From an uncultured Gammaproteobacteria bacterium (GTDB taxonomy: Bacteria > Patescibacteriota > Patescibacteriia > Veblenbacterales > UBA10138): a stretch of DNA of 64,000 nt. The stretch is from contig CAYGDX010000001.1 in assembly GCA_964348825.1 (NCBI GenBank), positions 90,909 through 154,908 of the forward strand, in the 5' to 3' direction. Below the pieces are notes generated by a model. That model searched no databases and was not told the origin of the DNA. It saw only the letters and a list, made by a program, of their open reading frames with translations. Made by a program: the position numbers and the translations under genes. Shown in pieces: positions 39,497-55,823 of the stretch (position 1 is the stretch's first letter; every line of letters begins with the position of its first letter).

Positions 39497-39520
39497 CTTA
39501 GGGATTTTTAGTTTTTCATT

Positions 39521-39696: not shown

Positions 39697-39739
39697 AGCA
39701 AATAATCAAATTAATTTTGTTTAGGGCTACTGCGCCCCG

Positions 39740-39790: not shown

Positions 39791-39898
39791 CGCTTTATTA
39801 ATATAGCAGAAACAATATTTATTTCAAGGGGTATATTAAAAATCCTAAATCCGAAACCCAAACTTCTAAATAAATCAAAAATCCCAATTCCCAAAAGT

Positions 39899-40170: not shown

Positions 40171-40174
40171 CGGT

Positions 40175-40203
40175 TTGACAACTTTCGAAATTTCCTGTAT
40201 AAT
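40175..40203 (+). promoter_or_regulatory. Consensus sigma-70-type promoter (TTGACA-17 nt-TATAAT)
   Basis: ttgaca at 40175-40180, 17-nt spacer, tataat at 40198-40203. Immediately abuts the 3' end of the family C element. Confidence 0.6.
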
Positions 40204-40472: not shown

Positions 40473-43244
40473 ATGTCATCAGAAAGCGCATTATCATCGA
40501 TGGATAATAGCAGACAACAAGTAGGCGTAGATACTCAAGGAGTAGATGTTTTTAGTATTACGGATGGGAAAAAAGTTACAATAGATCATGAGTCTCAACG
40601 AATTAGAAATACTCCTGATTATGCTAAATATCGAGAGGACTTGGATGAAATTTTTGACTATTGGAAAAATGATCCAGATGGTAGAGTAAGTTTGTTTTCG
40701 ACGTTCAATAAAAAAACAAATGTAGACGAAGAATTATTATCTTTAGCGGCTACGTACTTTGGTGAAGACAAAGAAGTGTTAAAGGCAGTAGAAGAAGATG
40801 AAGTAGAGCCGAGACAGTCGAGTCAGTTTCATAGTTATTTAGATGGAATCAAAAGAGTCATTTCTAAATTAGACAAGCCCAAATTTGTTTTGGAATTAAT
40901 TCTTGGTAGTAATTATAAATACATTGAGGACGAAGGTGAACCAGAAGAAAAGGAAGTGCACATGTTTGTTGATGCTAAAAATAAGGGCAGTATTATAGAA
41001 CTGGCCATAGCGGATTATTTAACAGGTGTGAATTACAGCCCTGTGTCAGAGGTAGAAAGTGATAATGGTAAAATTATACCTGAACCAGTAGTGTCAAATT
41101 CAGATGATACAACTAAAACTGTAACAAATGAGCAGGTTGACGCTGTCACTTCAACAGTAAAGTCAGATAAAGTTGAAGTAAAAAGCTCTGGAGCTGATAG
41201 TAGCCCATTTAAAGCACCCACCCGCGAAGAAATTTTACAAAATAAACCAAGTGAATTAAAAGATCCCTCAAAGGTAGTTAAAAAAGTCGATGATGATAAG
41301 GATAAGGGTAGTAAAGAAAATAAAAAAACAGAGCCGGCTAAAAACGAGAAAAAAGGTGGAGACGGTGGTGATGGAAAAGAAAATGAAAAATCTCGACTCA
41401 AAGAAGAGATTCAATGGTTTTTGCGTCAGGAAAATCTGAAGGGTTTAACCGTTGAACAAATTGAATGGCAGTTTCTAGAGGGAAATTTGTCTTCGTATTA
41501 TAAAGATAAGGATTATTTAAATTCATTGATGGTTCATAGAAATGTTTGGCGAACTGAAGTGGAATCATTTATTGAAACCATTAAACAAGATAAGTATTTC
41601 TCGGCTAAAAAGTTGATAGAAGAATCAGCTGCCTTTTTGGCGCCGTATTCAACTGAAAAACATCAAGCGGGAGAGTGGATCGTATACGATAAAATAAAAT
41701 ATGATTATGATTTATTACCAAAAGAAGTGGTGGATGAAAAAGAAGTAGCGGAAGGAAAAAAGGGCCAAAAAGATTTTCAAATAAAAGCTTTAGAGCAGAT
41801 TTTTAGTAAAATAGTTTATAGTGGCAAATGGAAAAAAGGTAGTCAGGATCAGCCGGAGTTGAAAGGTTCCGAGTTAGATAAAGATTTAGATGTGCGCTTA
41901 TGTTTGTGGTTATTGGAGCGGGCTGGTTTTAGCACAAACTCAAAAGCTGTTGATGTACCAGAAAGTCTAGTGGATGGCGCAACTTTTGATGCTGGTAGCA
42001 GAAGTGGTTTAAGTATTGATAAAAGTTTTGATTGGAAGTTAGAAGATGGTCAGGCAAAACGCGGAAAAAAACAGTTAGGCGCGATTTTTGATAATCACCA
42101 ACCACAAAATGGTTTGCATACTTCGGCAGCATATCAGCTTAATTTTTTCTTACGTGCAGCCGAAGAAATGGGATTATTTGATAACGAAGATAATGATCAT
42201 ACAAAAAAGAATCAAAGCGAATACATTAAATTAGATAGAAAAGTAGTTGATATGATGGTAAATATGTCGATTGATGAAGACAATGGTCGATTAGTAAAAG
42301 ACATTAAGCAGTTTAACGAGAGTGACAAAAATCTACGTGGTTTAGTTGGTAGAATTAAAACCTCTAAATTTGATGATTTACATGATTTTATTATTACTGT
42401 ATTACAATCTGATAGGAATAAAAGTTTGATAGAAAGAGATAATACTAAGAAAGTATATAACAATATATTGGATTATCCATTATCTGATAAATGGTTAGAA
42501 AAATTTAATTTAATCTGGCCAGATACAAAAAATAAAGGTAAATACACTGGTTGGGCATATCAACAAAAAGGCAATATCGAGCAGACTCACCGGATATTTA
42601 TGGTTGAGGGCAGTAAAGATAAATTAAAGAGTGATGAAGAGTTAGAAAAAGAAGGTTGGTTAGTAAGATTTTCTGATAAGAGTGGTAAAGATTTGCGCTT
42701 TGTAGTAAATATTCCTGGATTTGAGGGAGATTTTTATGGCGGCCACGTAGCGGCTCGAGCGCTTGGTTTTGATGGTATGATAAAATATACTCCAGAAAAG
42801 GCAAGTTTTTTAATTAATGTTTTAAAACCCGAATTATCGCTTAATAAAATTGCCGGAGATATTAAACAAGGTCAAATGGTTCGTGATACATTAGATATTA
42901 AACCTCCTAATGCTCAGGAGCTTAAGACAACATTACGTGAGATGTTAAATACATTATCACCCGGTTTGGCTGATAAGGCGCAAGGTAAGCTCAAAGAGTA
43001 TTTATTATTAGAAGACAAGGTGGAAAATGATTGGCAACAAGTAGATAAAGAATTTGTAAAACAAGAGTTAAAAACTTGGTACGATAAATTACCAGCCAAT
43101 AAAAAGCCAACTGATTTAGAGAGTCAGAATCAGGAATTTGAATGGCTTTTGGAATATAAATTAGTTAGCTTGAAAAGTAAGTTGTATAATGAATATATGG
43201 AATTATATAAAAAAATTAAGGATCTAAAATCTAAAGTTAAATAA
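40473..43244 (+). CDS. Hypothetical large acidic protein (923 aa), no signal peptide, no recognised domain
   Basis: Long uninterrupted ORF, Lys/Glu/Asp-rich with low-complexity KDKGSKENKKTEPAKNEKKGGDGGDGKENEK segment. Confidence 0.5.
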   Translation: MSSESALSSMDNSRQQVGVDTQGVDVFSITDGKKVTIDHESQRIRNTPDYAKYREDLDEIFDYWKNDPDGRVSLFSTFNKKTNVDEELLSLAATYFGEDKEVLKAVEEDEVEPRQSSQFHSYLDGIKRVISKLDKPKFVLELILGSNYKYIEDEGEPEEKEVHMFVDAKNKGSIIELAIADYLTGVNYSPVSEVESDNGKIIPEPVVSNSDDTTKTVTNEQVDAVTSTVKSDKVEVKSSGADSSPFKAPTREEILQNKPSELKDPSKVVKKVDDDKDKGSKENKKTEPAKNEKKGGDGGDGKENEKSRLKEEIQWFLRQENLKGLTVEQIEWQFLEGNLSSYYKDKDYLNSLMVHRNVWRTEVESFIETIKQDKYFSAKKLIEESAAFLAPYSTEKHQAGEWIVYDKIKYDYDLLPKEVVDEKEVAEGKKGQKDFQIKALEQIFSKIVYSGKWKKGSQDQPELKGSELDKDLDVRLCLWLLERAGFSTNSKAVDVPESLVDGATFDAGSRSGLSIDKSFDWKLEDGQAKRGKKQLGAIFDNHQPQNGLHTSAAYQLNFFLRAAEEMGLFDNEDNDHTKKNQSEYIKLDRKVVDMMVNMSIDEDNGRLVKDIKQFNESDKNLRGLVGRIKTSKFDDLHDFIITVLQSDRNKSLIERDNTKKVYNNILDYPLSDKWLEKFNLIWPDTKNKGKYTGWAYQQKGNIEQTHRIFMVEGSKDKLKSDEELEKEGWLVRFSDKSGKDLRFVVNIPGFEGDFYGGHVAARALGFDGMIKYTPEKASFLINVLKPELSLNKIAGDIKQGQMVRDTLDIKPPNAQELKTTLREMLNTLSPGLADKAQGKLKEYLLLEDKVENDWQQVDKEFVKQELKTWYDKLPANKKPTDLESQNQEFEWLLEYKLVSLKSKLYNEYMELYKKIKDLKSKVK

Positions 43245-43245
43245 T

Positions 43246-43572
43246 ATGGATAAAGCTAATGAGTTGTTTGACAATTATTTAAACCAAGTATTAGATAAAT
43301 CCTCTGGTGGTGTTTTGTCTTCCGAGCAAATTACGGCTTTAAGGCAGGAGTTAAGTGGTGTACTAGAAGAAAAATTATATTTAACTTCACTCAATGCTTT
43401 AAATGAGGCAGATACTGCTGCTTATGCGGAATTTATACAAACGGCCGATGATGTTTCGCTTCCCGCACAAATAGAATTTTTTAGTAAACATATTCCCGAG
43501 TATCAAACATTTTTAAAACAGGTTTTAGATGGGGCAGTGGAGGAGTTTGTGAAGTTGAGCGTGTCAAAATAA
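43246..43572 (+). CDS. Small acidic hypothetical protein (108 aa), chaperone-like
   Basis: Start 2 nt after the upstream stop (translational coupling). Acidic helical protein. Confidence 0.4.
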   Translation: MDKANELFDNYLNQVLDKSSGGVLSSEQITALRQELSGVLEEKLYLTSLNALNEADTAAYAEFIQTADDVSLPAQIEFFSKHIPEYQTFLKQVLDGAVEEFVKLSVSK

Positions 43573-43635
43573 CATTAGATCGCTAAATCATTAAAACAAA
43601 AAATTGATTTAATGTTCTAATGTTTAAGTGTTCTA

Positions 43636-43821
43636 ATGAAAGTTGTTAAACATATGACTGACGAAGAAAAAATAAAAAAAATTGAAAGTATTTACGCTGA
43701 TTTTGAACGTAAGTTAGCGCGTCATCGTACACACGTACAGCAGGTAGTGCATAGTACTTTACAGCAAATTGATAAAGAAAAAGCCAACACCATTTTAGAA
43801 TCATTTAAACAAAGCAAATAA
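43636..43821 (+). CDS. Small hypothetical protein (61 aa)
   Basis: ORF between family D and family B repeats. Helical, charged. Confidence 0.25.
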   Translation: MKVVKHMTDEEKIKKIESIYADFERKLARHRTHVQQVVHSTLQQIDKEKANTILESFKQSK

Positions 43822-43959
43822 ATTTGAGCATGTAGTTTATTGTAGGTGTCATTCCCGCGTAGGCGGGAATCCAGAAACAAATTACCTTGAATTGGTATTA
43901 AAAAATTATTAATATATTTTATAGATCCCTGATCAGGTCGGGGATGACAGTAAATTTTT

Positions 43960-46900
43960 ATGTCTGAAACCCCCAAACCATCACCAACTGAAAATCAAAC
44001 TAAGGTTGAGCTTAAATCTCATCCAGAACTTCGCCGCGATGTGTTAAAAGAAAAAGGTGTGGGAGTCTCGAAATTACTTGATAGTATTTATGATAAGGTG
44101 AAAGGTGGGTTAACTGGATTTAAGGATTTGATGACTGAATATACAAGCTTACTTGAAAAAGATAAAGCAGATACTTCTGTTACTCAACAAACAGCTATTG
44201 ACGAAGCTGAAACGGAAATTAAGAGAGTGCAGCGGCAAGTGGAAGAAGATAAAAAGGAATTGCAATATAAATTAGCAGAAATTGCTGAAGTGAGGGATAA
44301 CTTCAATAAAGTTGTTTGGAGGGAAGAGTTAAGACGTGACCCGATATTGAATGACGAATATGGTGTTAAATTTAGTCGAATTTTAAGCGCTGACGAAGAA
44401 AAAGTTATTGATCAAGTTTTAGACGATCAGAGATTAGAAATTGGAAAAAAGGCCGAAACAACTAGTAGGTTTAAAAAAATTCCGATTAATGAAAATGCGG
44501 AACGTAGTGATTATGTTGCTAATTATATTGCCAATGGTTTGTTGCGTCCAGAATATATAGAAGAAAGAAAGAGAGTTTATAAAAAGAAAGGACTGCCAGT
44601 TGAAGGTGTAAAAGTTGAGCCAGTTGTTGATCCTGTACCACAAATTATAGCCGAACCCGCAGCACCAGATGTCGTTATTACGCCAGTTGAACCAGAGGTT
44701 ATTTTAAATACCGAATCTGTTGCGCCAGTAGTTAATCCAACTGGCCCTGAAGTCGTGTCAGTTATTCCGACTGCTGAAGTAGAGCCGGTTGTTTTGTCAG
44801 AGGGGGAAGAAACAAAAAAAGTGAATGAATATTTAGAAAAGATTAATAGAGGTGGAATTTTAACTCCTGAAGAGCAAATATACTTAAATGAATTTACAAG
44901 AAAGCAGGAAGAAAGAGATCAAGCTGGTCGCGCACCAATTATTTCCACCGAAACTCCACCAGCTACCACAGAAGCCACTCCAAAAAAATGGGGTAAGGTT
45001 GAGGTGGCTAAATTAATGAATGAATTGAAGTTAAAAGATTTACCAGAATTAAAATATGATTGGCAAGTTAAATCTAATCAAGTGGAGGTGTTAGATGATA
45101 ATGGTAGTGTCAAGCGTGATAAAAAAGGTAATGCCATCACTGAATCATTTAACGAATTTACAGTAAATCTTAAATCTGAAAGTAAGGATGAACTTGCTAA
45201 CTTGTTAGATAAAAAAAATATACCAGAAGAAATAAAGAGTGATATTCTAAAAAATTTAATACAGACGATTGAAGATAGAATGTCTAAAAGTTTAGATGGG
45301 CAAGCTAAATTAGAAGAAGCCAAATCATTAAAATATCACAAGAAGCAAATTGGTTTGCAGTTCGGATTGCAATTAGCATTGAGTGGTGGGATTGCTATGA
45401 CACGTTGGCTATCTGGCGTCGCGGAAGCGGCTAGTCATGCTATTGGCAATGTAGCGCGAGTCGGTGGTTTTAGTGTTATGGGCGCAGGTGCTGGTGGCGG
45501 TCGGTTTTTGATTAACCGTGGATTGATGCCAGAATTAAATAGTTTAATATTAGGTAAAGAGAATGAATCATCTTTGCATAAAGCGGGTGTAGAAGTGGTG
45601 AATAAATTTTTTACCACTGATACAGTTAAAACTTTAGGTAAACAGGTTTTGAGTGAATTATTGGCTGAAAAATTAAAAGGTCATGTGGCTTTAACGTCAG
45701 AAACTAATATTGATACTATAAAAAGTTTATTAAAAGAGCATTGTGGATCGGCTTTTGAAAATGAAGCTCAAATAGAATCTTTTAGTCGGGAACTGGCTGC
45801 CATTGAACAGATTAAACAAGGTAATCAAAAACAGTTGGCTAAGTACATGGAGAGGTTGAAATTAAACGGTTTTTTAAATAGCGCTACTAAATCAGCTATC
45901 GCTGGTGGTACCATGGCCGCAGTAATGGCTTGGGTGCCTGGGTTAGGACAAGTTTGGGGTGGCGCCTTTGGTGCATTCACAATGGGTGGGCAAATTAAAT
46001 CAGCTTTGCGGCGCATGGGTATTGAAGAGCGTTATCAAATAATGCGTGAACAGATTTTAGGATTAGAGCAGAATAGAAGTGTAACCAAAAAGATTTTAAA
46101 AAAAGTAAGTTTTGGTTGGGGTGAAAAAAAGATTGCTGGTGCTGGTAATATTATGACTGAGGTTAATGGTCAAAAACGGGCCAACGAGGTGATGGCTTAT
46201 TTAGTTAGCGGTTTATTGGTGAATGATCCATTGCTTCAAGCACGCGCTGAAAGTTTAATTCAGCAAGCGGCCGAGCAGGGTATTATGCCTGAGCAAGCGG
46301 TGGTTGAAGCTAGAGTAAAAGCTTTAGAAAAAAAGTTAAAAATAGAACGTGCTACTGAAAATGTGGCTTATGCCGTAGGTACAGCAGTTGGCGCGGCAAC
46401 AAGTTGGGCGGCCATGGCGGCTAGTGAATTATTTAAAGGTGGGTCTGGCAGTAAGGTAGTAGTAGAAGCTGGCACTAGTAAGGGTTCACAAAATGCAGGT
46501 GAATTAAATACCGAAACTCATAATATAAATAAAGGGCCAGGAGTTCAAGCTGAACATCCGCCAATCGCCATCAAAATTGAAGGAAATATTGATACCGTGA
46601 GTGAAGCTGTTGATAAAGCTTTGCATGGCGCACCAACTACTACTCAAGATAATTTTGTTCACAAAGAATTAGGTGATGATGTTGCTATTACTGATTCTAA
46701 TCGTCACGGTTTGGTTGTTCAAGCAGTGCGTGAATTTAGTATCCGTAATATAAAAATGGGCGATGGTAATGACTTACTAAATCGTATTCATAATGGCGAT
46801 ACCGTGTTGCTTAAAAGTGATGGTGCAGTAGAAGTTAAAGGTACTTCTGGCATTAATCCAGAAGCTGTGGCCGAAAGTACTCTTCGTAAATCAGCGGCTG

Positions 46901-48936
46901 AACTTCACACTGAAACACAAACTGTTGAGGTAGAAAATAATCCACTTAAAAATGCAATTTGGCAAGAAGGATTAGTAGATGGTAAGTCAGTTAAATTTAC
47001 CGAGTTACCATTTGATTATAAAACTCACGATTTAAATGCTTATGCGCAAACCGATTCAGATACTTGGAATGAAGCGCGAAATTTACCTGATACAATTGAA
47101 CTTCACGATCGCGCCGGTAACGTAATTGATTATTGTCCGGTAGACCCTAGTGATACACGTAGTTTGAGCGAAGTATTGGCGGAAGCTAATAAGAGTTTTG
47201 GTACAGTTGATTCTCGTCTTCACGAAATTACCGAGGCCATGCCAAAATCTGGTTATTTTATGTCGGCCGGATCTAGGACTGAAATTGCTAGTTGGGCAAA
47301 AGTAGATATTCATAGTGGCGCACCGCTTTCCGAAACACAAATACATGATTTAAATCATTTAGATAATATTGTTGGTAATCACGCCACTGAATATTTAGGT
47401 AATTCAGCTTTTAAGTCGTTCTTAAGTTCTAATTTTGAAAATTTAAATGCTTCACGCGCTTGGGCTGATTTTCAAGCGGTAAAGTCATTACACGGTCAAG
47501 GGTTTGGGAATGTGGATATAAAAAGTGTTGATTTTATAAACAAAACTGCGGGCTGGGTGCGGATTGGCGAAAATAATTCCGGTAGTGGTTTTATGGCGCA
47601 AGTGGAAAATGGTGCGCTTCATACTTCATTGAAATCACCACTCACCGGCTCATCGATTGAAGTTTCCTTACCCAAAGATAAGGTGTTTAATTTTGAGATG
47701 GTGAACCGAGGCGTGAATCAAGCGATTGAGCAACAATCAGCGGAAATGAATGTAAAAAGTAATTTAGAAAGTATGGTAGGAAGCTCAGAGGCGAATGAAA
47801 TTTTGAAATTACCAGCTGGTTCAAATATAGAGCAGGAAATTTTGGATATTGCTAAAAATAAAGTTTTGTTTGTCACTGTGTCCGATGGCAACGGCCCTGA
47901 AGCAGTGAAATATTTAAATGGTTTAACTGATTTAACTAAAGGTGAGGGAACGCTTGCAGAACAATTAAGCAAAGCGGTGGTGCAAGGCAGGGTAGCGAGT
48001 GCAGTAGAATCAGTCAAATCAACTCCCGAGGTTGTTTATAAATCAACTGGAGATTTTAAAACTGAAGCTGGGTTTAAATCTGGAGTGGTAGTACCGCAAG
48101 ACGAAATAAACCCAAGTCGCCAAAATCCAGAAGAAGTGATAAAGCAAGCCCAAGTTGATATTGATAAACAAACTATAAATGCTATGAAAGGTGAGGGTAA
48201 ATATGCGTATGAGCCAAAGCCAGTAGAATTAAAATCTCAAACGCATCAAGATATAATAAGGGAAGAAGTTAAGCAAGATGTTAATTTAGCTGAGCAGGCT
48301 GGGGCTGGGGGCACAGCTGATGTTGCTGAACACGCCAGTGATGTATTTAACGAGCTAGATAATACTCAAGCCGCTTATGAGGCGCTTCACGATACTTCAC
48401 TTTCCGCAGCTGATAAATTCGCTGTCTTGATGTCGCTTAAATTAACTGATGGCGGTCGGCCGTATATGTTTGAAGGTGGCACTGAAGGTATTAGCTTAAA
48501 AGATGGTAAATATTTGTATTATGATCATGGCACAGCCCATGAATTAACACCGGATAATATAAATAAAATTGCTAGTGGCGAAATAGAACAAACTACTCAG
48601 GTTGATGCTGAAAAAACTTCAGTGGTTGAACAAGTAGAAACACCAATAGATAATGTTTCTACAGAGTTGAAAGATATTTTAGGGGATCACCTAAAAGGTA
48701 TTACACCTGATAACGTGTCTGATTATTCGGCCTTCTTTAATGGTTCGGCTGATCAAGCTAAATTAGCTTTTGATCATTTAGGTGAAGTAATTCGTGGTGG
48801 TGGTGATATAAAGAGTCAGGTACTTGCTTCACCAGAATTAACTTCTGCCACTAAAATAATTTTACAAGTGGAAGGTGGTGCCTTGGGTAATCCAGCAGCT
48901 AAAGAATTGTATAAAGATTTGTTTAGTAATAAATAA
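43960..48936 (+). CDS. Giant hypothetical protein (1658 aa) with internal glycine-zipper hydrophobic segments; tape-measure-like architecture
   Basis: Coiled-coil N-terminal third. Central Gly/Ala-rich hydrophobic segments (IGLQFGLQLALSGGIAMT..., AIAGGTMAAVMAWVPGLGQVWGGAFGAFTMGG, VAYAVGTAVGAATSWAAMAA). Long acidic C-terminal half. No signal peptide, no catalytic motif recognised. Confidence 0.5.
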   Translation: MSETPKPSPTENQTKVELKSHPELRRDVLKEKGVGVSKLLDSIYDKVKGGLTGFKDLMTEYTSLLEKDKADTSVTQQTAIDEAETEIKRVQRQVEEDKKELQYKLAEIAEVRDNFNKVVWREELRRDPILNDEYGVKFSRILSADEEKVIDQVLDDQRLEIGKKAETTSRFKKIPINENAERSDYVANYIANGLLRPEYIEERKRVYKKKGLPVEGVKVEPVVDPVPQIIAEPAAPDVVITPVEPEVILNTESVAPVVNPTGPEVVSVIPTAEVEPVVLSEGEETKKVNEYLEKINRGGILTPEEQIYLNEFTRKQEERDQAGRAPIISTETPPATTEATPKKWGKVEVAKLMNELKLKDLPELKYDWQVKSNQVEVLDDNGSVKRDKKGNAITESFNEFTVNLKSESKDELANLLDKKNIPEEIKSDILKNLIQTIEDRMSKSLDGQAKLEEAKSLKYHKKQIGLQFGLQLALSGGIAMTRWLSGVAEAASHAIGNVARVGGFSVMGAGAGGGRFLINRGLMPELNSLILGKENESSLHKAGVEVVNKFFTTDTVKTLGKQVLSELLAEKLKGHVALTSETNIDTIKSLLKEHCGSAFENEAQIESFSRELAAIEQIKQGNQKQLAKYMERLKLNGFLNSATKSAIAGGTMAAVMAWVPGLGQVWGGAFGAFTMGGQIKSALRRMGIEERYQIMREQILGLEQNRSVTKKILKKVSFGWGEKKIAGAGNIMTEVNGQKRANEVMAYLVSGLLVNDPLLQARAESLIQQAAEQGIMPEQAVVEARVKALEKKLKIERATENVAYAVGTAVGAATSWAAMAASELFKGGSGSKVVVEAGTSKGSQNAGELNTETHNINKGPGVQAEHPPIAIKIEGNIDTVSEAVDKALHGAPTTTQDNFVHKELGDDVAITDSNRHGLVVQAVREFSIRNIKMGDGNDLLNRIHNGDTVLLKSDGAVEVKGTSGINPEAVAESTLRKSAAELHTETQTVEVENNPLKNAIWQEGLVDGKSVKFTELPFDYKTHDLNAYAQTDSDTWNEARNLPDTIELHDRAGNVIDYCPVDPSDTRSLSEVLAEANKSFGTVDSRLHEITEAMPKSGYFMSAGSRTEIASWAKVDIHSGAPLSETQIHDLNHLDNIVGNHATEYLGNSAFKSFLSSNFENLNASRAWADFQAVKSLHGQGFGNVDIKSVDFINKTAGWVRIGENNSGSGFMAQVENGALHTSLKSPLTGSSIEVSLPKDKVFNFEMVNRGVNQAIEQQSAEMNVKSNLESMVGSSEANEILKLPAGSNIEQEILDIAKNKVLFVTVSDGNGPEAVKYLNGLTDLTKGEGTLAEQLSKAVVQGRVASAVESVKSTPEVVYKSTGDFKTEAGFKSGVVVPQDEINPSRQNPEEVIKQAQVDIDKQTINAMKGEGKYAYEPKPVELKSQTHQDIIREEVKQDVNLAEQAGAGGTADVAEHASDVFNELDNTQAAYEALHDTSLSAADKFAVLMSLKLTDGGRPYMFEGGTEGISLKDGKYLYYDHGTAHELTPDNINKIASGEIEQTTQVDAEKTSVVEQVETPIDNVSTELKDILGDHLKGITPDNVSDYSAFFNGSADQAKLAFDHLGEVIRGGGDIKSQVLASPELTSATKIILQVEGGALGNPAAKELYKDLFSNK

Positions 48937-48945
48937 TTTTCTATT

Positions 48946-49890
48946 ATGCTCGAGCGAGGAATGTCACCCGAAGATATTAATTTTACTGCACCAGCGGAAG
49001 AACAACCAAATAATTCAGATAAAAAATTTTCTCGTCGTGATTTTACTAAATTGTTAGGTTTGGGTTTGGCAGGGCTAGTAGCGGAAAAAGCTTTAAGTCC
49101 GCTAGCGCGTGCCGCGGAAATGGTATCTAGCGAAAGTAGTGGAGCAGAAGTTGAAGCTGAAATGTTGACGCCGGTAGAACAGCGTGAAGTAGAAAGTAAA
49201 GTGCAATCTGAAATAAATAAAGCTCGCGAACTGATTCTTAACCAAGATTACAGTTCTTTTTTGGGTAATAAATTTTTAGTGGCGGCTTTGTATTATTCAG
49301 ATAATTTTATGAATAATGAGTTAACGTCAGAAAAAATTAAAAATGATCCACCACGTCAAATAATTGCCGGCCTCAAAACATATATTACACCAGATGTAAA
49401 AAAGCAATATGTAGCCATGCTTAAATTATGGTCACGTAATATAGAATTTAAAGATCCTGTTAAACCACTCGAGCGAATGGATTTTGGACGTGGTACCAAT
49501 CATAGCGATGCGGTGGATTTATTTATTGCTGAAGGGTCAGATATAAAATCAGTTTATAGTGGCATAGTAGTACACGCCGAAGGTGGTTTTAGGTCGCGTG
49601 ATCCTTTGTCAGTTAGTTCTCGCAAAGGTGGTAATACGGCAATAGTTTTTAATGCCGAGAAGAATGAATTTTATCGTTATTGTCATATGGAAAAAGTATT
49701 AGTGGAGCCGGGTGAAAGAATAAAGGCGGGAGCTTTGGTGGGTAAAGTTGGACACACAGGTTTGAATGCGGGTAAACGTGGGCATGGTGAACATTTGCAT
49801 TTTGAAATAAATAAATTTGATCCTAGAGATGGTTCAACTATTGCCTTGCCCGCTCCCGAAATAAAAACTCGTTTACGAGCGATTGAATAA
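48946..49890 (+). CDS. M23-family (LytM/lysostaphin-like) metallopeptidase with twin-arginine-type signal peptide
   Basis: N-terminal SRRDFTKLLGLGLAGLVA (Tat-like S-R-R-x-F-x-K). C-terminal M23 motifs HxxxD-like region and YCHMEKVLVEPGERIKAGALVGKVGHTG...HLHFEI. Confidence 0.7.
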   Translation: MLERGMSPEDINFTAPAEEQPNNSDKKFSRRDFTKLLGLGLAGLVAEKALSPLARAAEMVSSESSGAEVEAEMLTPVEQREVESKVQSEINKARELILNQDYSSFLGNKFLVAALYYSDNFMNNELTSEKIKNDPPRQIIAGLKTYITPDVKKQYVAMLKLWSRNIEFKDPVKPLERMDFGRGTNHSDAVDLFIAEGSDIKSVYSGIVVHAEGGFRSRDPLSVSSRKGGNTAIVFNAEKNEFYRYCHMEKVLVEPGERIKAGALVGKVGHTGLNAGKRGHGEHLHFEINKFDPRDGSTIALPAPEIKTRLRAIE

Positions 49891-49942
49891 AATCCTCCGC
49901 CTCTCGATTTGACTCGAGGCACCTCCTTTAAAAAAGGAGGAA

Positions 49943-49990
49943 TAAAAAAAACAAGCCAATCTGAAGTTTTGAAGTTCAGAATTGGCTTGA
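49943..49990 (-). terminator. Rho-independent terminator for minus-strand gene 50016-50753 (also closes the plus-strand M23 gene)
   Basis: On minus strand: caagccaattctgaa-cttcaaaac-ttcagattggcttg followed by ttttttttt. A further hairpin cctccttt-aaaaa-aggagg lies on the plus side. Confidence 0.55.
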
Positions 49991-50015
49991 ATATTACAGT
50001 TGTGGAATTCCCAAT

Positions 50016-50753
50016 TTATTGGGATTTTTTACAACCTTTATACCGGCAATGTTCTCCGGTACATTCTTTTTGGTGTCGCTCAGAGGCAGCGGCACAAATT
50101 TTCTCATATGCGGTACGTTGTACCTCATTGAAATCGTCTGTGTCCACTTCATCTGAAAATGCTTCAGATGCTACAACAATCTCCAAATTGCTAATTCGGT
50201 CACTGTTGCCATCAGTCTTGTTGTTAAGACCGATAATTACATCTTCGGCGTTGCTTAATCTGATTGCGTGTTTGTCAACGCGTTCGGTTAAGCTTGCCAA
50301 GTCGGTGGCATATTCGTCGGAAAGTGATAACCCTTCGTTGACGAGCGAGTCAATTCTCGCTTGTAATTTAGCAAATACGCCGTTTTTGAATCCCGGCATA
50401 TTGACCCAACGTTTGTCACCCATCTTCCTTAATGTATCTAACAGTTTGGCATAGGCCGCACTGTCAAGATTGATTGTGACGGACGGTGCTGTTGTTGGGG
50501 GGCAAGGGCTTGTACGTGCTCCAGTTCCGCCAGCTTTCAATGCGGCGAGTTCTTTTTCAAGAGCATCGAGGCGTTTTTCGAGTTTTTCGCGGTTGTGACG
50601 CATTGTGCCGAGAAATGCCGCGGTGGTGTCAGAATCAAGCGATGAATTGACAACGTGTGTGCCGTCTTTGCATAAAACCTGCGCGGACGTGGTATTGAAG
50701 TTGAAGATCATCGCGAAAGCGACGAGTAATGTAATGAATAATAAGTTTTTCAA
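50016..50753 (-). CDS. Secreted coiled-coil protein with Cys-rich C-terminus
   Basis: Signal peptide MKNLLFITLLVAFAMIFNFNTTSAQ. Coiled-coil EKLEKRLDALEKELAALK. C-terminal CTGEHCRYKGC. Local GC content visibly higher than the flanks. Confidence 0.5.
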   Translation of the reverse strand: MKNLLFITLLVAFAMIFNFNTTSAQVLCKDGTHVVNSSLDSDTTAAFLGTMRHNREKLEKRLDALEKELAALKAGGTGARTSPCPPTTAPSVTINLDSAAYAKLLDTLRKMGDKRWVNMPGFKNGVFAKLQARIDSLVNEGLSLSDEYATDLASLTERVDKHAIRLSNAEDVIIGLNNKTDGNSDRISNLEIVVASEAFSDEVDTDDFNEVQRTAYEKICAAASERHQKECTGEHCRYKGCKKSQ

Positions 50754-50833
50754 AGTGTGTTCCTTTATAATAATTGATTTGGATTAAAATTTTGAATTAA
50801 AGTTATGATCAGTATAATAGAATTTAATTTTTG

Positions 50834-51802
50834 TTAATCTTCAGGTGGGCCGTCGGTATTGTGACCCTTGACTGGCGCTGGCTTTGGCTTCGGAGGATCG
50901 GGTTGTGGTACAACCTCTTCCTCTTCTTCATTCCCAACGTTTTCGTCAACGGGTTGATCAACTGTCGGCGCCGGTAACTGCTCGGGGAGATTATTAATTT
51001 GCTCTTGCAAGTCGTTGACTTGCTGTTGCAAAGCTTTATAGTCACTTTGCGATGCTTTACCCGTGCCGGAAAATCCACCAACGGAAATGATAGCAATTAA
51101 TACGATAAAAAGAGCAGAGAATAAGATGACCCCGAGTCGTTGCCAGAAGACTGGTTTTGCAGCTAATTTAGCAGCGTCTTCTGCTGACTTTTCTGCAAGT
51201 TTTTTCCACCCTTCTGCATCATCTGCGCTTTGCTTTGCAGCACCTGCAGAATTTGCTGATTCGCCAGCAGAAGTGTACGCATTGTTTGCGTGCGTTTCTG
51301 CGTCACCTGCGAGTTTCCGAACATTTTTTTCAGCCGTCTGGGAAAATTCCGTAAACGTTTCTTTTTCGGTTCTCACTAACGATTTAATACCATTAGTTCC
51401 TTCCTCAAAAAGACGTTCCAAACTTTCTTTGGCGCTCTGATTGGTATTTTCAAGGGCGGATTTTTGTTCGTCAAGATAATTTTTGACTTTTAAAATCGTC
51501 GCGAACGTTGTATCCGTCATTAATAAATCAGCGATGGATACATCTTTCTCGTACAGCTTCAACTGTTCGTCGAAGCTTAGAACCGAGACGAAGTTTACAA
51601 TTTCATTAGCCGCTACAGCACGATAGGCGTTGATGGCATGAGCCTGCGCGTCCGCCTGTGTTGAATCAGGAGGCGCTGTTTGCATGAATTCGTTTTCAGC
51701 TTGATTGAAAACTTGTTCAAACTCATCCTGTTTTTCCGGAAGAAGAATCGCGACAATCCGTCGCAAAACTTCAATGGTGATTGAATATAGATAATTTTTC
51801 AA
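50834..51802 (-). CDS. Membrane protein: cytoplasmic helical domain, one TM, Pro/Glu-rich extracytoplasmic tail ending HNTDGPPED
   Basis: TM VILFSALFIVLIAIISVGGF. Tail ...EEEEVVPQPDPPKPKPAPVKGHNTDGPPED shares its terminal motif with the next gene. Confidence 0.5.
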   Translation of the reverse strand: MKNYLYSITIEVLRRIVAILLPEKQDEFEQVFNQAENEFMQTAPPDSTQADAQAHAINAYRAVAANEIVNFVSVLSFDEQLKLYEKDVSIADLLMTDTTFATILKVKNYLDEQKSALENTNQSAKESLERLFEEGTNGIKSLVRTEKETFTEFSQTAEKNVRKLAGDAETHANNAYTSAGESANSAGAAKQSADDAEGWKKLAEKSAEDAAKLAAKPVFWQRLGVILFSALFIVLIAIISVGGFSGTGKASQSDYKALQQQVNDLQEQINNLPEQLPAPTVDQPVDENVGNEEEEEVVPQPDPPKPKPAPVKGHNTDGPPED

Positions 51803-51878
51803 AGTGTGATTCCTTTATAATATGTTACGAAATTTTTGAATTAGTTAAAACAGAATAATGAAATGAATTGAAATTTTG

Positions 51879-52241
51879 TTAATCTTCCGGTTCACCTTTT
51901 GGATTGTGAGTTCCGGAATTTCCGCTTCCACCCACCGCCGGCGCTGATTGCTCAGTGCTTTGGGGAGTGGTTGACGGATTTTTTACGGTTTTTTGTAAGC
52001 CGAAGTAAATGGCTAAACCGAGAACAATGACGGCGAGGATGATCAGAGCAGGTATTAACCATGCTGGTGACTTCTTTGTCGTTGGTTGGTTTTGTTGGCC
52101 AACCAGTTGTCCATTTCCGCCGAGGTCAATGTTTAAGGTTTGCTCTTCAATGATTGCTGTCAATTTAATTTTGACATTACCACCTAAGCGTCCTTTAATT
52201 AACTCGTCGATCGGAACGATTAATTCTTTAGTGTTGTTCAT
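51879..52241 (-). CDS. Small membrane protein with C-terminal tail ending HNPKGEPED
   Basis: TM WLIPALIILAVIVLGLAIYFGL. C-terminus GSGNSGTHNPKGEPED parallels the HNTDGPPED of the 50834-51802 product. Confidence 0.45.
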   Translation of the reverse strand: MNNTKELIVPIDELIKGRLGGNVKIKLTAIIEEQTLNIDLGGNGQLVGQQNQPTTKKSPAWLIPALIILAVIVLGLAIYFGLQKTVKNPSTTPQSTEQSAPAVGGSGNSGTHNPKGEPED

Positions 52242-52621
52242 ACGAATTTTCCTTTCGTTCGTATGTGTTCTATTACTTTCAGGGATCGGTAACCTGCCGA
52301 TTCTGTGTAGCTAGAACGTGTTTTTGAATATTTCACGGACATGGAAATTTCCCAAGCCGTGGCACGAATTAGAACCTGAACTCAAAGTAGGTTAAACCCT
52401 TGCTGCGCAGGCAAGGTCTTTGAGACAGGTTCATTTATATAAAATTGTTAAGTTGCGTTCATTACAGTAAGTGCACCCCACGCATCTTTAACATATCATG
52501 ATAGCGCATCTAGCAAATTCTGTCAAGACCTGTGGAATGAAAAAGTGAGTTTTTGGGCTAATATTAGATAAATTAATTCCCAAGACCCAAGCCCCAAATC
52601 CCAAAAACATTAGATTAATTA

Positions 52622-52850
52622 GGGTTTGTCGTTGTGCCGCCCTGTCGTAGGGTTTGTAGACATCATTTAATTTTAGTGACTTAAAAAAGTAACGCCGCAG
52701 TGAGACCCTCAGAACTTGCGTGTTGTGGTCGCTCTGCATAGCAAGTTCGTTTGGTCGAACCGGCGTTACCACTCGGGCGTGCCAGGGATGGGGTTGTTAG
52801 GGGTAAGGGACGGGCTTCGCCTAACTCCGAGTCCCTACCCCTAACGAAAT
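52622..52850. repeat. Diverged family C-related structured element
   Basis: Shares cctgtcgtagggtttgta and gttcgtttggtcgaaccggcg blocks with 36591-36760. Followed by a family A fragment at 52855-52900. Confidence 0.4.
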
Positions 52851-53066
52851 TAATAAGAGATTGCTTCGCTCGTCTGATGACTCACTCGCAATGACATTTA
52901 TGTTTGTATTATACCCCTCGGCTTGGCTCGGGGTTATCCGCTTTTTACAATAAATAAATTCTAGAAAGCGGATAAAAAAACAGAGTTGGAAAATTGAGGA
53001 TTAAATTAATTTTAATCCAGAAAATTCCAACTCTATAGATTATTCGTCGATGACTTATAGTGCCAT

Positions 53067-53717
53067 CTACTTTAAATCCGGACTAAAGGTAAGCCCAAAT
53101 ACGAAAGCAAAGTTGATTATACGTTCCTCCGTGTTGTTTATAAAATTAACATTTGTTACCCCACTCGCCCCTGCGCCAACTTTTACATTGAGTAATCCTA
53201 ACTTTTCAAATCTATGTGTGATAGCGAAAGCTACGTTTGGAGTTACTGTTTTCTTTTGGTTTTTATCCGTGCGATCATAAGCAAAGACCGCGCCGAATGA
53301 AATTTCTGTCCATAGATTTTTCTTTACCTTTGAAGGTGAGAAAATTAATTCAGCACCAAAGCCCCAAGGGTAATATCCACCAGCGTCATCGTTTTCATAA
53401 TAGCCAACAATGTTGCCAAATGCAGTTAATTTGCCAGCCCAGTTTTGAATTGGCCAAGAAAGTCCGATACTAGGTGCCGCTAAGTTAAGTGGTGCGCGTC
53501 CAGTGCCAAGTATGGTTACGCCGGAGAATCCAACCCATAAGCGGCCGCCATTGAAAGTAGTGGATTTTGGTTTTGCAACTTCGTTATCGTTGCAACAGTC
53601 ACAACAATCCGTATGATTATAATTGTGGCTGTGTTTTGGTTTGGAGCATTCTTGCGCCAAGCTGATTTGTGGAAGTGATAATAAAATCACAGCCACGAGT
53701 ATGTATGCGTATTTCAT
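53067..53717 (-). CDS. Putative outer-membrane beta-barrel protein (OmpA/OmpW-like fold), signal peptide
   Basis: Signal peptide MKYAYILVAVILLSLPQISLAQE. Alternating hydrophobic beta-strand patterns (AFAITHRF, INFAFVFGLTF). Cys cluster CCDCC near N-terminus. Confidence 0.45.
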   Translation of the reverse strand: MKYAYILVAVILLSLPQISLAQECSKPKHSHNYNHTDCCDCCNDNEVAKPKSTTFNGGRLWVGFSGVTILGTGRAPLNLAAPSIGLSWPIQNWAGKLTAFGNIVGYYENDDAGGYYPWGFGAELIFSPSKVKKNLWTEISFGAVFAYDRTDKNQKKTVTPNVAFAITHRFEKLGLLNVKVGAGASGVTNVNFINNTEERIINFAFVFGLTFSPDLK

Positions 53718-53805
53718 TGTAAAGGTTCCTTATGTTGTTATATTGTTTGTTTTGAATGAATTTTGATGTTATTTAATTTCATCTTACCTTACCTCTTTTA
53801 CCTAG

Positions 53806-53980
53806 AGTTTGTCAAGCCCGTGTGTCATTGCGAGCGAGTCCAAAGACGAGCGCGGCAATCTCACGTTTAAAGAAAATTCACCAGAGATTGCTTCGTCCTC
53901 CGACTGCGGTCTACGTCCTCGCAATGACAGTGGGTGTGTTATAGCAATCATTATTATTTGCTCTTGGGCTTGACAAAGAG
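53806..53980. repeat. Family A repeat bounded by terminal inverted repeats tttgtcaagccc / gggcttgacaaa
   Basis: gtgtcattgcgagcgag...ctcgcaatgacag core (53823-53930) nested inside a 12-bp perfect IR pair at 53809-53820 and 53966-53977. Confidence 0.6.
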
Positions 53981-54055
53981 TAAAATATGGAGTAGAATAA
54001 AGAGTTATAAAATATAGAGAAAAATAATCAAAAAACAAAAAAAGGAAAATTTACA

Positions 54056-54316
54056 ATGAGAAAATCGCTCGTTCTAATATTAACAATATTTGCAATAATT
54101 GGGATTATGTCATTAGGTTTAATTTTTTTAACCCTTCTCGGATTAGCTTTAACTCATGATCAGTCGGATTTCATAAGTTTTAGTAAATTTGTGTGGGGAA
54201 ACAAAGAATTAATTGTCGCTTGTTTAAGCGGGCTGATACCTTTATTGTTTCCTAAAATTAGAAATGAAATTGATTCACATCCGATTGGAGATTATTTGCT
54301 CAAAAATATTGGGTGA
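54056..54316 (+). CDS. Hypothetical small membrane protein (2 TM)
   Basis: 86-aa ORF with two hydrophobic helices. Confidence 0.3.
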   Translation: MRKSLVLILTIFAIIGIMSLGLIFLTLLGLALTHDQSDFISFSKFVWGNKELIVACLSGLIPLLFPKIRNEIDSHPIGDYLLKNIG

Positions 54317-54489
54317 GTAGCTCAAATGTATTTTATTTTGGAGCCACTATAATATCAGTGGCTTCTTTTTTTATTAACAAGTACAATGTAATTAGATTGA
54401 AATTTACCCCACCTAGCCTCCCCTAGAAAGGGGAGGAATTAGAAATACATTCTTAATTCGTGATTCGTTATTCTAGATTCTGTAACACT

Positions 54490-54936
54490 ATGTCCACCTT
54501 AGCTCAAAACAAACGCGCGCTATATGATTATCAAATCCTGGAGAAATTTCAGGCAGGATTAGTGCTGACTGGTGCTGAGGTAAAATCGACCAAAGGTGGG
54601 CGAGCGAATTTGCAAGGAAGTTATGTGTTGCCACGCGGTAATGAGTTGTGGTTGACTGGCGCATCAATTGCGGCTTATCCACCAGCGGCACGGGAGCAAA
54701 TTTCTTACGACCCAAATCGTGACCGCAAATTATTACTCAAGGCGCAAGAAATATCTTATTTGATAGGTAAGTTGAAGGAAAAGGGCTTGACAGTAGTACC
54801 AATTTCTATTTATACTGCGCATAGATTAGTGAAAGTTGAATTAGGGGTGGCGAAAGGTAAAAAGACGCATGATAAACGCAAGGTTATTAAACAGCGACAG
54901 CTAGATAGAGAAGTGAGGGGTTCTTTAAAATACTAG
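54490..54936 (+). CDS. smpB: SsrA-binding protein SmpB
   Basis: NKRALYDYQILEKFQAGLVLTGAEVKS...NRDRKLLL...AKGKKTHDKR matches SmpB throughout. Listed ORF starts at 54460; Met at 54490 fits SmpB N-terminus. Confidence 0.85.
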   Translation: MSTLAQNKRALYDYQILEKFQAGLVLTGAEVKSTKGGRANLQGSYVLPRGNELWLTGASIAAYPPAAREQISYDPNRDRKLLLKAQEISYLIGKLKEKGLTVVPISIYTAHRLVKVELGVAKGKKTHDKRKVIKQRQLDREVRGSLKY

Positions 54937-55026
54937 AGTAGACATTCACTAAGAAATCCGAAGCACGAATATCGAAATTCGAAAATTTTTTAGGATTTCG
55001 GATTTAGAATTTAGGATTTTGTCTTA

Positions 55027-55408
55027 GGGGGTGTTTACAATTTGCTAGTTCATTAAAATTATTTTCGGCAGGTGGTAGTGAGATCTACCTAAAAAGCTCA
55101 ACCTACAAATGCCAATTCATTTGTCGCTAAAATGAAGAATGCTTTTGCATCTTTATCTTTAGCACCAGTTATGGCCTAAAATCCATAACCGTTTGTTTAG
55201 CCAATGCTCAATAAGTTAAACAAGCGTCATTCATTGAGCTGTGATATGCTATAGTTGATACTTATGTAGCAGTCAAGAACTTTAAGTGTCGGCATTTTAG
55301 AATTTTGTGCGGTTTTTATCTAAAATTTCCTACTTAAATCACACTGAACCTGGAGCCGAAGGTAGTAGTTTGAATTACACACGGGTGCAATTCCCGTCAT
55401 CTCCACCA
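55027..55408 (+). ncRNA. ssrA: Putative tmRNA (ssrA), about 380 nt
   Basis: Directly downstream of smpB. 3' end cgggtgcaattcccg (T-arm-like) + catCTCCACCA (tRNA-Ala-like acceptor 3' strand, discriminator A, CCA). 5' GGGGGTG can pair with CATCTCC including a G3:U70-type wobble. Internal candidate tag ORF gcc aat tca ttt gtc gct aaa atg aag aat gct ttt gca tct tta tct tta gca cca gtt atg gcc TAA (ANSFVAKMKNAFASLSLAPVMA*). Confidence 0.45.
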
Positions 55409-55562: not shown

Positions 55563-55823
55563 ATGGGATTTACAGTTTATATTTTAGAAGAAATAGAAAG
55601 TAAAAAATGGTATATTGGTTATAGTACTAATTTACAACAAAGAATTAAGGATCATAATTCTCATAAAAATATTTCAACTAAATTTGGTAAATGGCGTTTA
55701 ATCTATGCCGAATATTATTTGCATAAGTTGGACGCTTTAGGTAGAGAAAAATTTTTAAAAAGTGGAAGCGGGCATCGTTTCCTTAAAAAACAACTTTATC
55801 ATTATCTAAACTACCTTGCGTAA
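55563..55823 (+). CDS. GIY-YIG nuclease-domain protein (small stand-alone, UPF0213-like)
   Basis: FTVYILEEIESKKWYIGYSTNLQQRIKDHN carries the GIY...YIG...R...H/N motif. Confidence 0.7.
   Translation: MGFTVYILEEIESKKWYIGYSTNLQQRIKDHNSHKNISTKFGKWRLIYAEYYLHKLDALGREKFLKSGSGHRFLKKQLYHYLNYLA

Follow-up and report, generated by a model that had tools for sequence, protein, structure and literature searches.

The region at 49900-53750 of the window (the 64-kb stretch of DNA analysed here) belongs to the MAG of a groundwater Patescibacteria (CPR) bacterium and is probably a vertically inherited, clade-restricted and fast-diversifying cluster of envelope genes. It encodes four proteins, here P1 to P4, each with a signal peptide or one transmembrane (TM) segment, and it is adjoined by other envelope genes. 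The original prediction of a module of surface or membrane proteins was thus borne out; the accompanying proposal, that the module was horizontally acquired, was not.

Gene content, composition and borders

P1 to P4 form the sole run of minus-strand genes in the window, as had been noted from the sequence. The features of the locus are as follows.

49943..50024, no strand assigned: convergent terminator zone of M23 (+) and P1 (-), from direct reading of the sequence and a terminator scan
50016..50753, minus: P1, 245 aa, TTG start; signal peptide MKNLLFITLLVAFAMIFNFNTTSA/Q; 6 Cys
50735..50864, minus: junction module copy 1, with P2 tail codons, stop, promoter-like TTAACA..TATACT, RBS AAAGGAA and P1 TTG start
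50834..51802, minus: P2, 322 aa, TTG start; no signal peptide; TM at about 219-241; tail ...KGHNTDGPPED
51785..51909, minus: junction module copy 2, with P3 tail codons, stop, promoter-like TTAACA-16-CATTAT, RBS and P2 TTG start
51879..52241, minus: P3, 120 aa; one TM at about 63-83; Ser/Thr/Pro/Gly-rich tail; C-terminal end ...GTHNPKGEPED
52242..52526, minus: promoter-like TTGACA-17-TATCAT (52526..52498) and structured P3 5' leader of ~250 nt, from promoter scan and folding
52634..52913, minus: non-coding composite block, made up of the next five features
52913-52908, minus: TATAAT box
52896-52857, minus: half palindromic repeat
52845-52797, minus: hairpin GTTAGGGGTAGGGAC...GTCCCTTACCCCTAAC
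52769-52689, minus: diverged family C hairpin, ending in T-run 52688-52683
52656-52634, minus: orphan family C 3' strand, CAAACCCTACGACAGGGCGGCAC
52982..53034, minus: P4 intrinsic terminator (inverted repeat I4), a 24-bp-arm hairpin then GTTTTTTT on the minus strand; conserved in relatives
53067..53717, minus: P4, 216 aa; signal peptide ...PQISLA/QE; His/Cys-rich stretch KPKHSHNYNHTDCCDCC; then a predicted 8-stranded amphipathic beta-barrel
53823..53929, no strand assigned: full palindromic repeat element TGTCATTGCGAG...CTCGCAATGACA (inverted repeat I2), within the divergent promoter region of P4 and orf86
54056..54316, plus: orf86, a small membrane protein

Compositional distinctness, also part of the original prediction, was confirmed with the 64-kb window as the sole comparison set: GC is 0.421 vs 0.378±0.019 and the highest in the window, tetranucleotide distance peaks here, and codon usage is the most deviant (z of 5-10.5 vs a median of 1.3) and strongly atypical in all four genes. 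GC3 is raised in smpB, IF3 and L20 as well (0.38-0.43), and so may track expression level. A Bacteroidota-type T9SS sorting domain is present in another minus-strand gene of the window.

The surroundings consist of housekeeping and envelope genes (LigA, GatA, three DsbA-like genes, Lgt, smpB, tmRNA, IF3, L35 and L20), with the DsbA-like genes, Lgt, a Tat-signal M23 peptidase and two giant ORFan proteins adjoining the locus. At the M23 border, a hairpin at 49953-49988 is taken as the P1 terminator because a T-run follows it on the minus strand, and a second hairpin at 50009-50024, with a plus-strand T-run, overlaps the P1 stop codon. Independent assemblies cover both borders. Two are short-read assemblies of the same genome, one (L002) 100% identical over 52867-55000 and the other (L001) covering 50812-52914; both break at 52867-52914, inside the non-coding block. 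The third is a long-read contig (L011) that runs through the entire locus in the relative described below. The cluster-mate of IF-3 bears the name 'Patescibacteria group bacterium'.

The border repeats and the neighboring tmRNA had been read as signs of an island. They are indeed present, but the repeats are members of dispersed genome-wide families, not direct repeats flanking an insertion, and the tmRNA (55027-55408) lies beyond smpB with its 3' end pointing away from the locus, which is itself upstream of smpB. Neither an insertion at the tmRNA 3' end nor flanking direct repeats were found at the locus, and no ORF between 49900 and 54450 encodes an integrase, transposase or conjugation protein.

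The family C element at the border is a long-hairpin repeat with strong covariation and no Rfam family. Like ERIC/IRU, REP/REPIN, Correia elements and integron attC, it is multi-copy, intergenic and an imperfect long hairpin, with size variants arising from insertions at a fixed internal site and compensatory changes that preserve the hairpin; unlike in them, conservation is highest in a 21-nt apical loop and in an internal loop rather than at the termini. More distant lineages have it too, in metagenome contigs with one loop-motif match each, and no transposase was seen alongside it.

Conserved position and mosaic divergence

The relative used for comparison, the one other lineage of this clade with sequence, is assembly GCA_964360795.1 (contigs L004 and L006), together with a low-coverage contig (L009) and a long-read contig (L011), all from one population. 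The independent lineages compared are thus two, the window genome and the relative, and conservation of position is shown at this shallow depth. The order p923-big1658-M23-P1-P2-(P3)-P4-smpB-IF3 was seen in L004/L006, in L009 and in L011, the last of which spans the relative's entire locus; between M23 and smpB, position, order and orientation are the same. The relative's locus shows the same enrichment in GC (0.423 vs 0.368 and 0.404 vs 0.376), and the atypical GC and codon usage, common to both, are a stable property of the locus and not the scar of a recent transfer.

A recent, strain-specific genomic island, as originally envisaged, would account for the compositional distinctness, the border repeats and the nearby tmRNA, but it is largely refuted by the same genes, site and GC excess in the relative and, with the genome-wide nature of the repeats, the missing integrase and a site upstream of smpB instead of at the tmRNA 3' end, is very improbable. 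As for horizontal transfer in general, the shared position speaks against it, whereas the GC and codon statistics are indeed atypical.

Divergence from the relative is mosaic, with sharp block boundaries between conserved and divergent segments. The flanking genes show about 85-93% nucleotide identity, and protein identity reaches 98% for smpB, 98% for IF3 and 95% for M23, as against 42% for p923. The non-coding composite block is 89-95% identical, which is the level of the surrounding genome. The blocks that could not be aligned lie at 50556-51273, 51962-52438, 53036-53587 and 54048-54490, in addition to parts of p923 and big1658. At the orf86 site the relative has a non-homologous 109-aa ORF instead, so that the variable zone reaches about 54450, just upstream of smpB.

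Homologues of P1-P4 outside the narrow clade were found neither among 5.8 billion clusters nor among 1.84 billion representatives, and the homology search that had been suggested for the four proteins yielded clade-internal matches only, with no donor. These results bear also on an ancient acquisition, in which the module or a precursor would have been imported from a GC-richer donor into the ancestor of both lineages and would still show foreign codon usage, perhaps renewed by repeated recombinational import of alleles. Such a history is in keeping with the window-high GC, tetranucleotide and codon deviations, with the relative's matching GC excess and with the exchange of DNA that block-wise allele replacement reveals; the fold of P4, typical of diderms and borne by a group regarded as having lost the outer membrane, and the T9SS domain elsewhere in the window also favor it. 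A purely vertical history, by itself, leaves the atypical codon usage of P1-P4 unexplained; divergent alleles brought in repeatedly by recombination might also account for it. Nevertheless, no donor can be named, mobility genes and att sites were not found, the promoters, RBS and TTG starts have a native appearance and are duplicated in situ, and GC3 is raised in smpB, IF3 and L20 too, where it may follow expression level. Ancient acquisition is considered unlikely, although it deserves to be kept in mind.

Products of the locus

P1 is a secreted helical protein with four of its six Cys in the C-terminal ...CAAASERHQKECTGEHCRYKGCKKSQ. Its homologues are confined to this clade, and searches of Pfam, PHROG and NCBIfam gave no match above threshold. 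Overall protein identity to the relative's P1 is 64%, distributed over a variable N-terminal region of ~85 aa and a conserved C-terminal region of ~160 aa; residues 77-150 are near-identical, while the N-terminus could not be aligned. The two junction modules, preceding P1 and P2, respectively, were compared in a four-way alignment including the relative's sequences and are homologous, sharing direct repeats D1, D3, D4 and D14 and showing 74% identity to each other over 138 nt by blastn.

P3 is preceded by a promoter-like site with 11/12 matches in the promoter scan and by a leader with a predicted fold of -67.9 kcal/mol (z = -3.4). In the relative, conservation of the promoter and the first ~45 nt of the leader is 89%, and the remaining leader is not conserved. 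What had been described as a perfect 16-bp inverted repeat in this region proved to be imperfect, with 7+7 bp around a bulge (52372-52432, in the P3 leader), and is missing from the relative. Rfam covariance models matched neither the 5' leader, the inverted repeat nor family C at gathering score, the best being engA at 22.7 vs 46 bits, on the wrong strand.

P2 and P3 are single-TM proteins, probably oriented N-in/C-out, and the motif shared by their C-termini, as originally predicted, was confirmed (...HNTDGPPED and ...HNPKGEPED). In the relative the tails are ...PKDDSGIEG and ...GKVDDSGLE, the latter pair using different codons; in these two genomes, then, the tails agree inside each genome and differ between genomes. 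With two genomes at hand, the match could be the outcome of gene conversion acting on a duplicated 3' segment and need not mean binding to a shared partner. Sorting signals such as LPXTG, PEP-CTERM and GlyGly-CTERM were considered for the tails and rejected, as no residue follows the motif and the TM segment lies 35-80 residues upstream. The relative's P3 has 155 aa and is alignable only near the TM segment and QSTEQSAP.

P2 comprises an N-terminal helical domain, a predicted helix of ~114 residues, the TM segment, a short helix, a Pro-rich linker and the tail, although its AF2 model is of low confidence (pLDDT 56). It has a single homologue, the P2 of the relative (47% identity). Assignment to FtsB/DivIC (PF04977) was rejected, the weak DivIC match at residues 244-272 scoring 17.1 bits vs a gathering cut-off of 28.9. 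P2 resembles the bitopic divisome coiled-coil proteins FtsB, DivIC and FtsL in having a short, leucine-zipper-like extracytoplasmic helix directly after the TM segment, but differs from them in its 215-residue cytoplasmic domain and Pro-rich tail, both absent from those proteins.

Residues 106-227 of P2 match the tail-fibre PHROG 20001 (E 3.3e-8), and the M23 domain matches phage endolysin and tape-measure PHROGs. Phages also encode OMP-like barrels, and the locus might be viewed as a degenerate prophage or lysis-cassette remnant, with M23 as endolysin, P2 and P3 holin- or spanin-like, and P2 containing a tail-fibre-like coiled coil. However, the P2 match spans an Ala/Ser/Asn-rich helical stretch and may be compositional, tblastn of P2 against 50,697 phage records gave no match, and p923, big1658, P1, P3 and P4 have no PHROG matches. 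Further, M23 is on the opposite strand with a Tat-type signal, and among housekeeping surroundings no capsid, terminase or integrase genes were found; a phage origin is hardly credible.

P4 had been predicted to be an OMP-like beta-barrel, and its AlphaFold model, of moderate confidence, agrees: eight long antiparallel amphipathic strands are predicted to form a closed barrel closest to OmpW and NspA. Five family members are known: four database clusters and, on L006, the copy of the relative. No further ones came out of a profile search against 1.84 billion representatives. The signal peptide MKYAYILVAVILLSLPQISLA/QE, identified by hydropathy and inspection, is kept in the five homologues. 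Compared with the relative's copy, identity is 41% overall, with the signal peptide and Cys/His stretch nearly identical and the barrel at about 30%; a second allele type (P0018) was found in the sampling project that yielded this genome's exact contigs. In predicted fold P4 resembles the 8-stranded outer-membrane barrels OmpW, NspA, OmpX/Ail, the OmpA N-domain and PagL. It differs from these in lacking sequence similarity (no Pfam match at E<0.1, no NCBIfam match and no OMP among PDB profile matches at E<10), in its added N-terminal His/Cys-rich (CxxC-type) segment and in lacking a C-terminal beta-signal with a terminal aromatic residue, every member ending in ...(T/I)(F/L/I)SP(D/N/K)L(K). 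It is also unlike known barrels in being made by an organism of a group that, according to PMC10160955, has lost the outer membrane.

Should P4 be a genuine membrane-inserting barrel, the lineage might possess an unrecognised outer lipid layer, or P4 might be exported and inserted in a Gram-negative host's outer membrane, as part of an interface for attachment or feeding. P1-P3 would then be an anchoring complex on the epibiont side, joined through the shared tail peptide, and the block-wise hypervariability would reflect an arms race in which host or phage specificity is at stake. This elaboration is regarded as rather improbable.

Working model and comparison with known systems

For the vertically inherited, fast-diversifying envelope cluster that is preferred here, two minus-strand transcription units may be envisaged. 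P3-P2-P1 would be driven by the sigma-70-like promoter with its long leader and by the duplicated promoter/RBS junction modules, and P4 would form a unit ending at its own terminator. P1 and P4 would be exported by Sec, while P2 and P3 would serve as N-in/C-out membrane anchors. The short extracytoplasmic tails of these two end in the same peptide and may both bind a single extracellular partner, for which P1 or P4 would be the simplest candidate. Although the two lineages are about 90% identical in nucleotides, very divergent alleles would have taken the place of whole blocks in the exposed parts, namely the N-terminus of P1, the tail of P2, most of P3 and the barrel of P4, while promoters, signal peptides and flanks remain conserved. 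Block-wise replacement of exposed parts is the pattern expected from diversifying selection and homologous recombination, which may act here at the surface meeting the host cell or phages.

Little has been established about the way in which CPR/Patescibacteria attach to their hosts and exploit them, and the majority of their surface proteins are ORFans. The locus offers a compact, testable set of parts: two anchors whose shared tail is specific to the genome, a secreted Cys-rich protein as candidate partner, and an OMP-like barrel. All of these diversify while the backbone around them stays conserved, and it is at such sites that one expects host-range or phage-receptor determinants. If a supposed monoderm does make a barrel of the outer-membrane type, this would matter to the debate over CPR envelope architecture. 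Additionally, atypical GC, atypical codon usage and a strand switch are insufficient for calling a recent island in such genomes.

Hypervariable surface loci at fixed chromosomal sites include opa and por of Neisseria and the variable regions between conserved flanks in Bacteroides and Helicobacter. By analogy, the present locus may be likened to such loci in its conserved flanks and regulatory parts, block-wise replacement of exposed segments, secreted or membrane products and atypical composition. It differs from the Neisseria, Bacteroides and Helicobacter loci in having proteins without detectable sequence relatives and no phase-variation repeat, invertase or silent cassette, and further in belonging to an ultra-small CPR bacterium and in encoding two adjacent anchors that have a genome-specific C-terminal peptide in common.

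Composition, position and origin of the locus

The four genes P1 to P4, at 49900-53750, form the sole run of minus-strand genes in the window, and the region they occupy is best seen as an envelope-protein locus that is specific to the clade, stable in position and diversifying rapidly. The surroundings are ordinary CPR core genome, encoding a type IV pilus set, LigA, GatA, three DsbA-like proteins, Lgt, smpB, tmRNA, IF3, L35, L20, ArgRS and IleRS; GC is low in the window (0.38), GC skew is positive throughout, and the plus strand holds nearly all genes. The original prediction that the island is compositionally distinct was borne out by GC, tetranucleotide and codon analyses. GC is indeed raised, if only modestly (0.421, versus a mean of 0.378±0.019 and a maximum of 0.412 for same-size windows elsewhere in the 64-kb window), and the tetranucleotide distance of the island ranks largest within the 64 kb. 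GC3 is 0.37-0.45 in P1-P4 versus 0.306±0.054 in the remaining genes, and, measured against all other genes pooled, the four deviate in synonymous-codon usage by z = 10.5, 8.1, 5.0 and 5.7 (other window genes: median 1.3, at most 8.0). The shift is not due to strand alone: at 5841-6449 there is a minus-strand gene with z = 0.0.

These features had been interpreted as the mark of a horizontally acquired surface-protein module. Through cluster representatives of the flanking M23 peptidase and of smpB one relative was found, the Hainich groundwater MAG GCA_964360795.1. It is the only other lineage available, and its locus lies on two contigs:

Contig L004: p923-DUF5663-big1658-M23, then minus-strand genes of 235, 326 and 155 aa, where the contig ends
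Contig L006: begins in the repeat block; minus-strand genes of 163 and 215 aa, then a 109-aa ORF, smpB and IF3

By tblastn the relative's genes were confirmed as P1 (64% identity), P2 (47%) and P4 (41%), and the P3 counterpart was assigned from position and partial alignment. The same gene order is found in low-coverage contig L009 and in long-read contig L011, the latter uninterrupted from p923 to IF3. These were rejected as extra independent lineages: their P2 and P3 are identical to the GCA_964360795.1 type, the low identities being sequencing errors, and they thus belong to the same population, leaving just two independent lineages. The one other lineage therefore also has the locus at this position, between M23 and smpB, with a matching GC excess (0.423 vs 0.368 and 0.404 vs 0.376). 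Assembly chimerism at the island is unlikely, as both borders are covered by independent contigs and, in the relative, a single long-read contig runs through the entire locus.

Homology searches with P1, P2 and P4 returned matches within the clade and none outside it (word-indexed searches, with a full HMMER profile for P4), and hence no donor is identifiable; no donor homologue, mobility gene or att duplication was found. Neither GTDB species genomes searched with M23 nor JGI metagenomes searched with the P2 alignment gave further relatives, the clade being represented solely by ENA, Logan and NCBI contigs. Together these results effectively refute a recent acquisition. An ancient acquisition, preceding the split of the two lineages, is still conceivable, and the codon bias, which is real, speaks for it. 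The earlier observations were mostly correct, and their reading as horizontal acquisition is unsupported at testable depth.

Transcription units, leader and repeats

The P3-P2-P1 genes follow one another with spacers of 76-80 nt that are mutually homologous (74-78% identity), the homology extending into roughly the final 12 codons of the gene before the spacer and into the RBS and TTG start of the gene after it; a promoter-like TTAACA/TATACT-type pair is present in both. About 825 bp of non-coding, repeat-built DNA separates this unit from that of P4. The elements that delimit the units are:

Between M23 (+) and P1 (-): convergent terminator zone
52526..52498: sigma-70-like promoter upstream of P3, 11/12 matches
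52634-52769, minus strand: diverged copy of the dispersed family C repeat, at the island border
52982-53034: strong P4 terminator, making P4 a separate unit

The P3 leader extends about 250 nt after the promoter and folds more strongly than shuffled sequence (z = -3.4). What had been described there as a 16-bp perfect inverted repeat has arms of 7+7 bp with an AA/A bulge (52372-52387, 52418-52432); the nested 6-bp hairpin is real. The repeat occurs once in the window and has no significant match in Rfam. A role as operator or riboswitch was rejected because the repeat is imperfect and present once, lacks conservation in the relative and matches nothing in Rfam.

The DNA between the units comprises half of a repeat from the TGTCATTGCGAG palindromic family (which has 10 matches across the window vs 0.5 expected), a unique GC-rich hairpin and the diverged family C copy. 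Short-read metagenome assemblies of the window's own genome break inside this repeat block, at 52867-52914. The block at 52438-53036 is not an extra-conserved, dedicated ncRNA gene, since its conservation is at genome level (about 90%) and it is made of dispersed repeat families. Within it, between P4 and P3, the minus strand at 52683-52913 carries a TATAAT box, hairpins over about 215 nt, and a stem with a T-run, all conserved in contigs L006 and L011; this unit, read from 52913 to 52683, could encode an independent sRNA. Contig L011 carries about 1.6 kb of additional sequence (6700-8250) separating the P3 promoter from the family C copies, with frameshifted ORFs resembling a DDE transposase (GLDPDSGSDFI), a mere candidate that gave no Pfam match; the relative's short-read contigs end here.

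Family C consists of a short palindromic hairpin followed by a long hairpin of about 135 nt, with optional inserted sub-hairpins and an invariant 21-nt apical loop (CUAUGCrmArCkACCACAGCAC). Further minus-strand copies in the window lie at about 36590-36760 and about 39900-40175, the latter with an additional hairpin of about 110 nt inserted in the loop, and copies beyond the window are on L006, L012 and L015-L030. The 3' motif was found in one GTDB species only, the Hainich population already named, where at least nine contigs carry it. The loop motif is additionally present on seven JGI metagenome contigs, which come from more distant lineages; no Rfam family matches the element. In an alignment of 13 copies, compensatory double changes occur at 25 of 41 pairs, and 94.4% of cells are paired versus 81.3% in shuffles (0/500 shuffles reach the observed value) and 29-43% when partners are slid. 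G-U intermediates are nearly absent (5 cells vs 68 double changes), a scarcity that hints at, but falls short of proving, a hairpin formed in DNA; the element may be an RNA or an ssDNA hairpin.

Elsewhere in the window, at 39480-39800 (minus strand), tRNA-Asp (39619-39696) stands between an exact 43-nt duplicate of its own 3' half, which follows it (39563-39521), and a copy of a 5' fragment, which precedes it; both partial copies adjoin a CCCCG...CGGGG hairpin. The segment is inverted relative to contig L004, and the duplications may be an att-site or inversion remnant.

Mosaic divergence and matched protein tails

Over alignable flanking and interspersed blocks the relative is about 85-93% identical to the window in nucleotide sequence (tmRNA, 98.7%). 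Set among these are blocks that do not align:

50556-51273: P1 N-terminus and P2 extracytoplasmic part
51962-52438: P3 and most of its leader
53036-53587: P4 barrel
54048-54490: orf86, versus the relative's non-homologous 109-aa ORF

Blocks begin and end abruptly: in P4 the barrel has about 30% identity, versus an almost identical signal peptide and Cys/His stretch, and P1 residues 24-76 are unalignable versus almost identical residues 77-150. Downstream of P4, relatives and contig L013 carry an extra secreted-protein gene of 159-163 aa, ending ...KGED or ...EGED (L006 1193-1684, minus strand; L013 707-1186; L011 5146-5640), that is absent from the window genome, in which a conserved terminator stands almost directly after the P4 stop; in L012 a relative-type P4 allele is followed by a different gene. 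As judged from the alignments, this pattern is the signature of recombinational allele replacement at a probably surface-exposed locus. The giant ORFans p923 (42% identical) and big1658 are likewise unalignable in parts (41131-42900 and 43813-44608), and the hypervariable surface region therefore exceeds the flagged island. These two ORFs, at 40473-48936 (+), have no Pfam or PHROG match; the middle of big1658 is Gly-rich and hydrophobic. Beyond the locus, a small GIY-YIG-domain ORF (55563-55823, +) lies directly downstream of tmRNA in both the window genome and the relative.

As predicted, P2 and P3 each have a single TM helix (219-241 and about 63-83) and end in KGHNTDGPPED and GTHNPKGEPED, endings that are unique in the window. 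P2 lacks a signal peptide and has a helical N-terminal part of about 215 residues; the confidence of its AF2 model (pLDDT 56) is too low for a fold search. The tails are alike within a genome and unlike between the two genomes: HNTDGPPED and HNPKGEPED in the window, PKDDSGIEG and GKVDDSGLE in the relative. Either gene conversion of a duplicated 3' segment or co-selection by a common binding partner would produce such matching, and two genomes do not separate them; in the relative's tails the shared residues are encoded by different codons, and these synonymous differences favour selection at the protein level. Going beyond sequence features, synteny and the divergence pattern, we infer a mechanism in which P2 and P3, taken as N-in/C-out anchors, would present one common peptide on their short external tails to an exported partner, the nearest candidates being P1 or P4. 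The three adjacent DsbA-like genes would fit Cys-rich exported proteins, and the selective agent may be host-cell contact or phage adsorption.

Envelope proteins and the putative barrel

None of P1-P4 falls significantly in a Pfam, PHROGs or NCBIfam family. P1 has the expected signal peptide and also six cysteines. The neighbouring M23 peptidase (48946-49890, +) bears a twin-arginine-type signal (SRRDFTKLLGLGLAGL), a candidate for Tat export. At 11006-12649 (minus strand) is a 547-aa protein that carries at its C-terminus a genuine T9SS type-A sorting domain (TIGR04183, 41.5 bits vs a cut-off of 23), together with SdrD-B/CarboxypepD_reg domains. This sorting signal is typical of Bacteroidota and unexpected in a Patescibacteria genome.

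P4 is, as had been proposed, a beta-strand protein with CCDCC in a His/Cys-rich stretch, a signal peptide and strands of alternating hydrophobicity. It has no match among family sequence profiles (Pfam, NCBIfam, PDB profile search), and its C-terminus lacks a terminal aromatic beta-signal. An AlphaFold model built from a 4-sequence alignment has eight long antiparallel strands (mean pLDDT 63; C-terminal half, 70-85) and, at moderate confidence, qualifies on structure as an 8-stranded OMP-type barrel.

The main points of interest are the uncatalogued structured repeat at the border, the genome-specific matched tails, and an OMP-like barrel in a CPR genome. According to PMC10160955, CPR bacteria have lost the outer membrane, and a membrane-type barrel is therefore unexpected in this genome.
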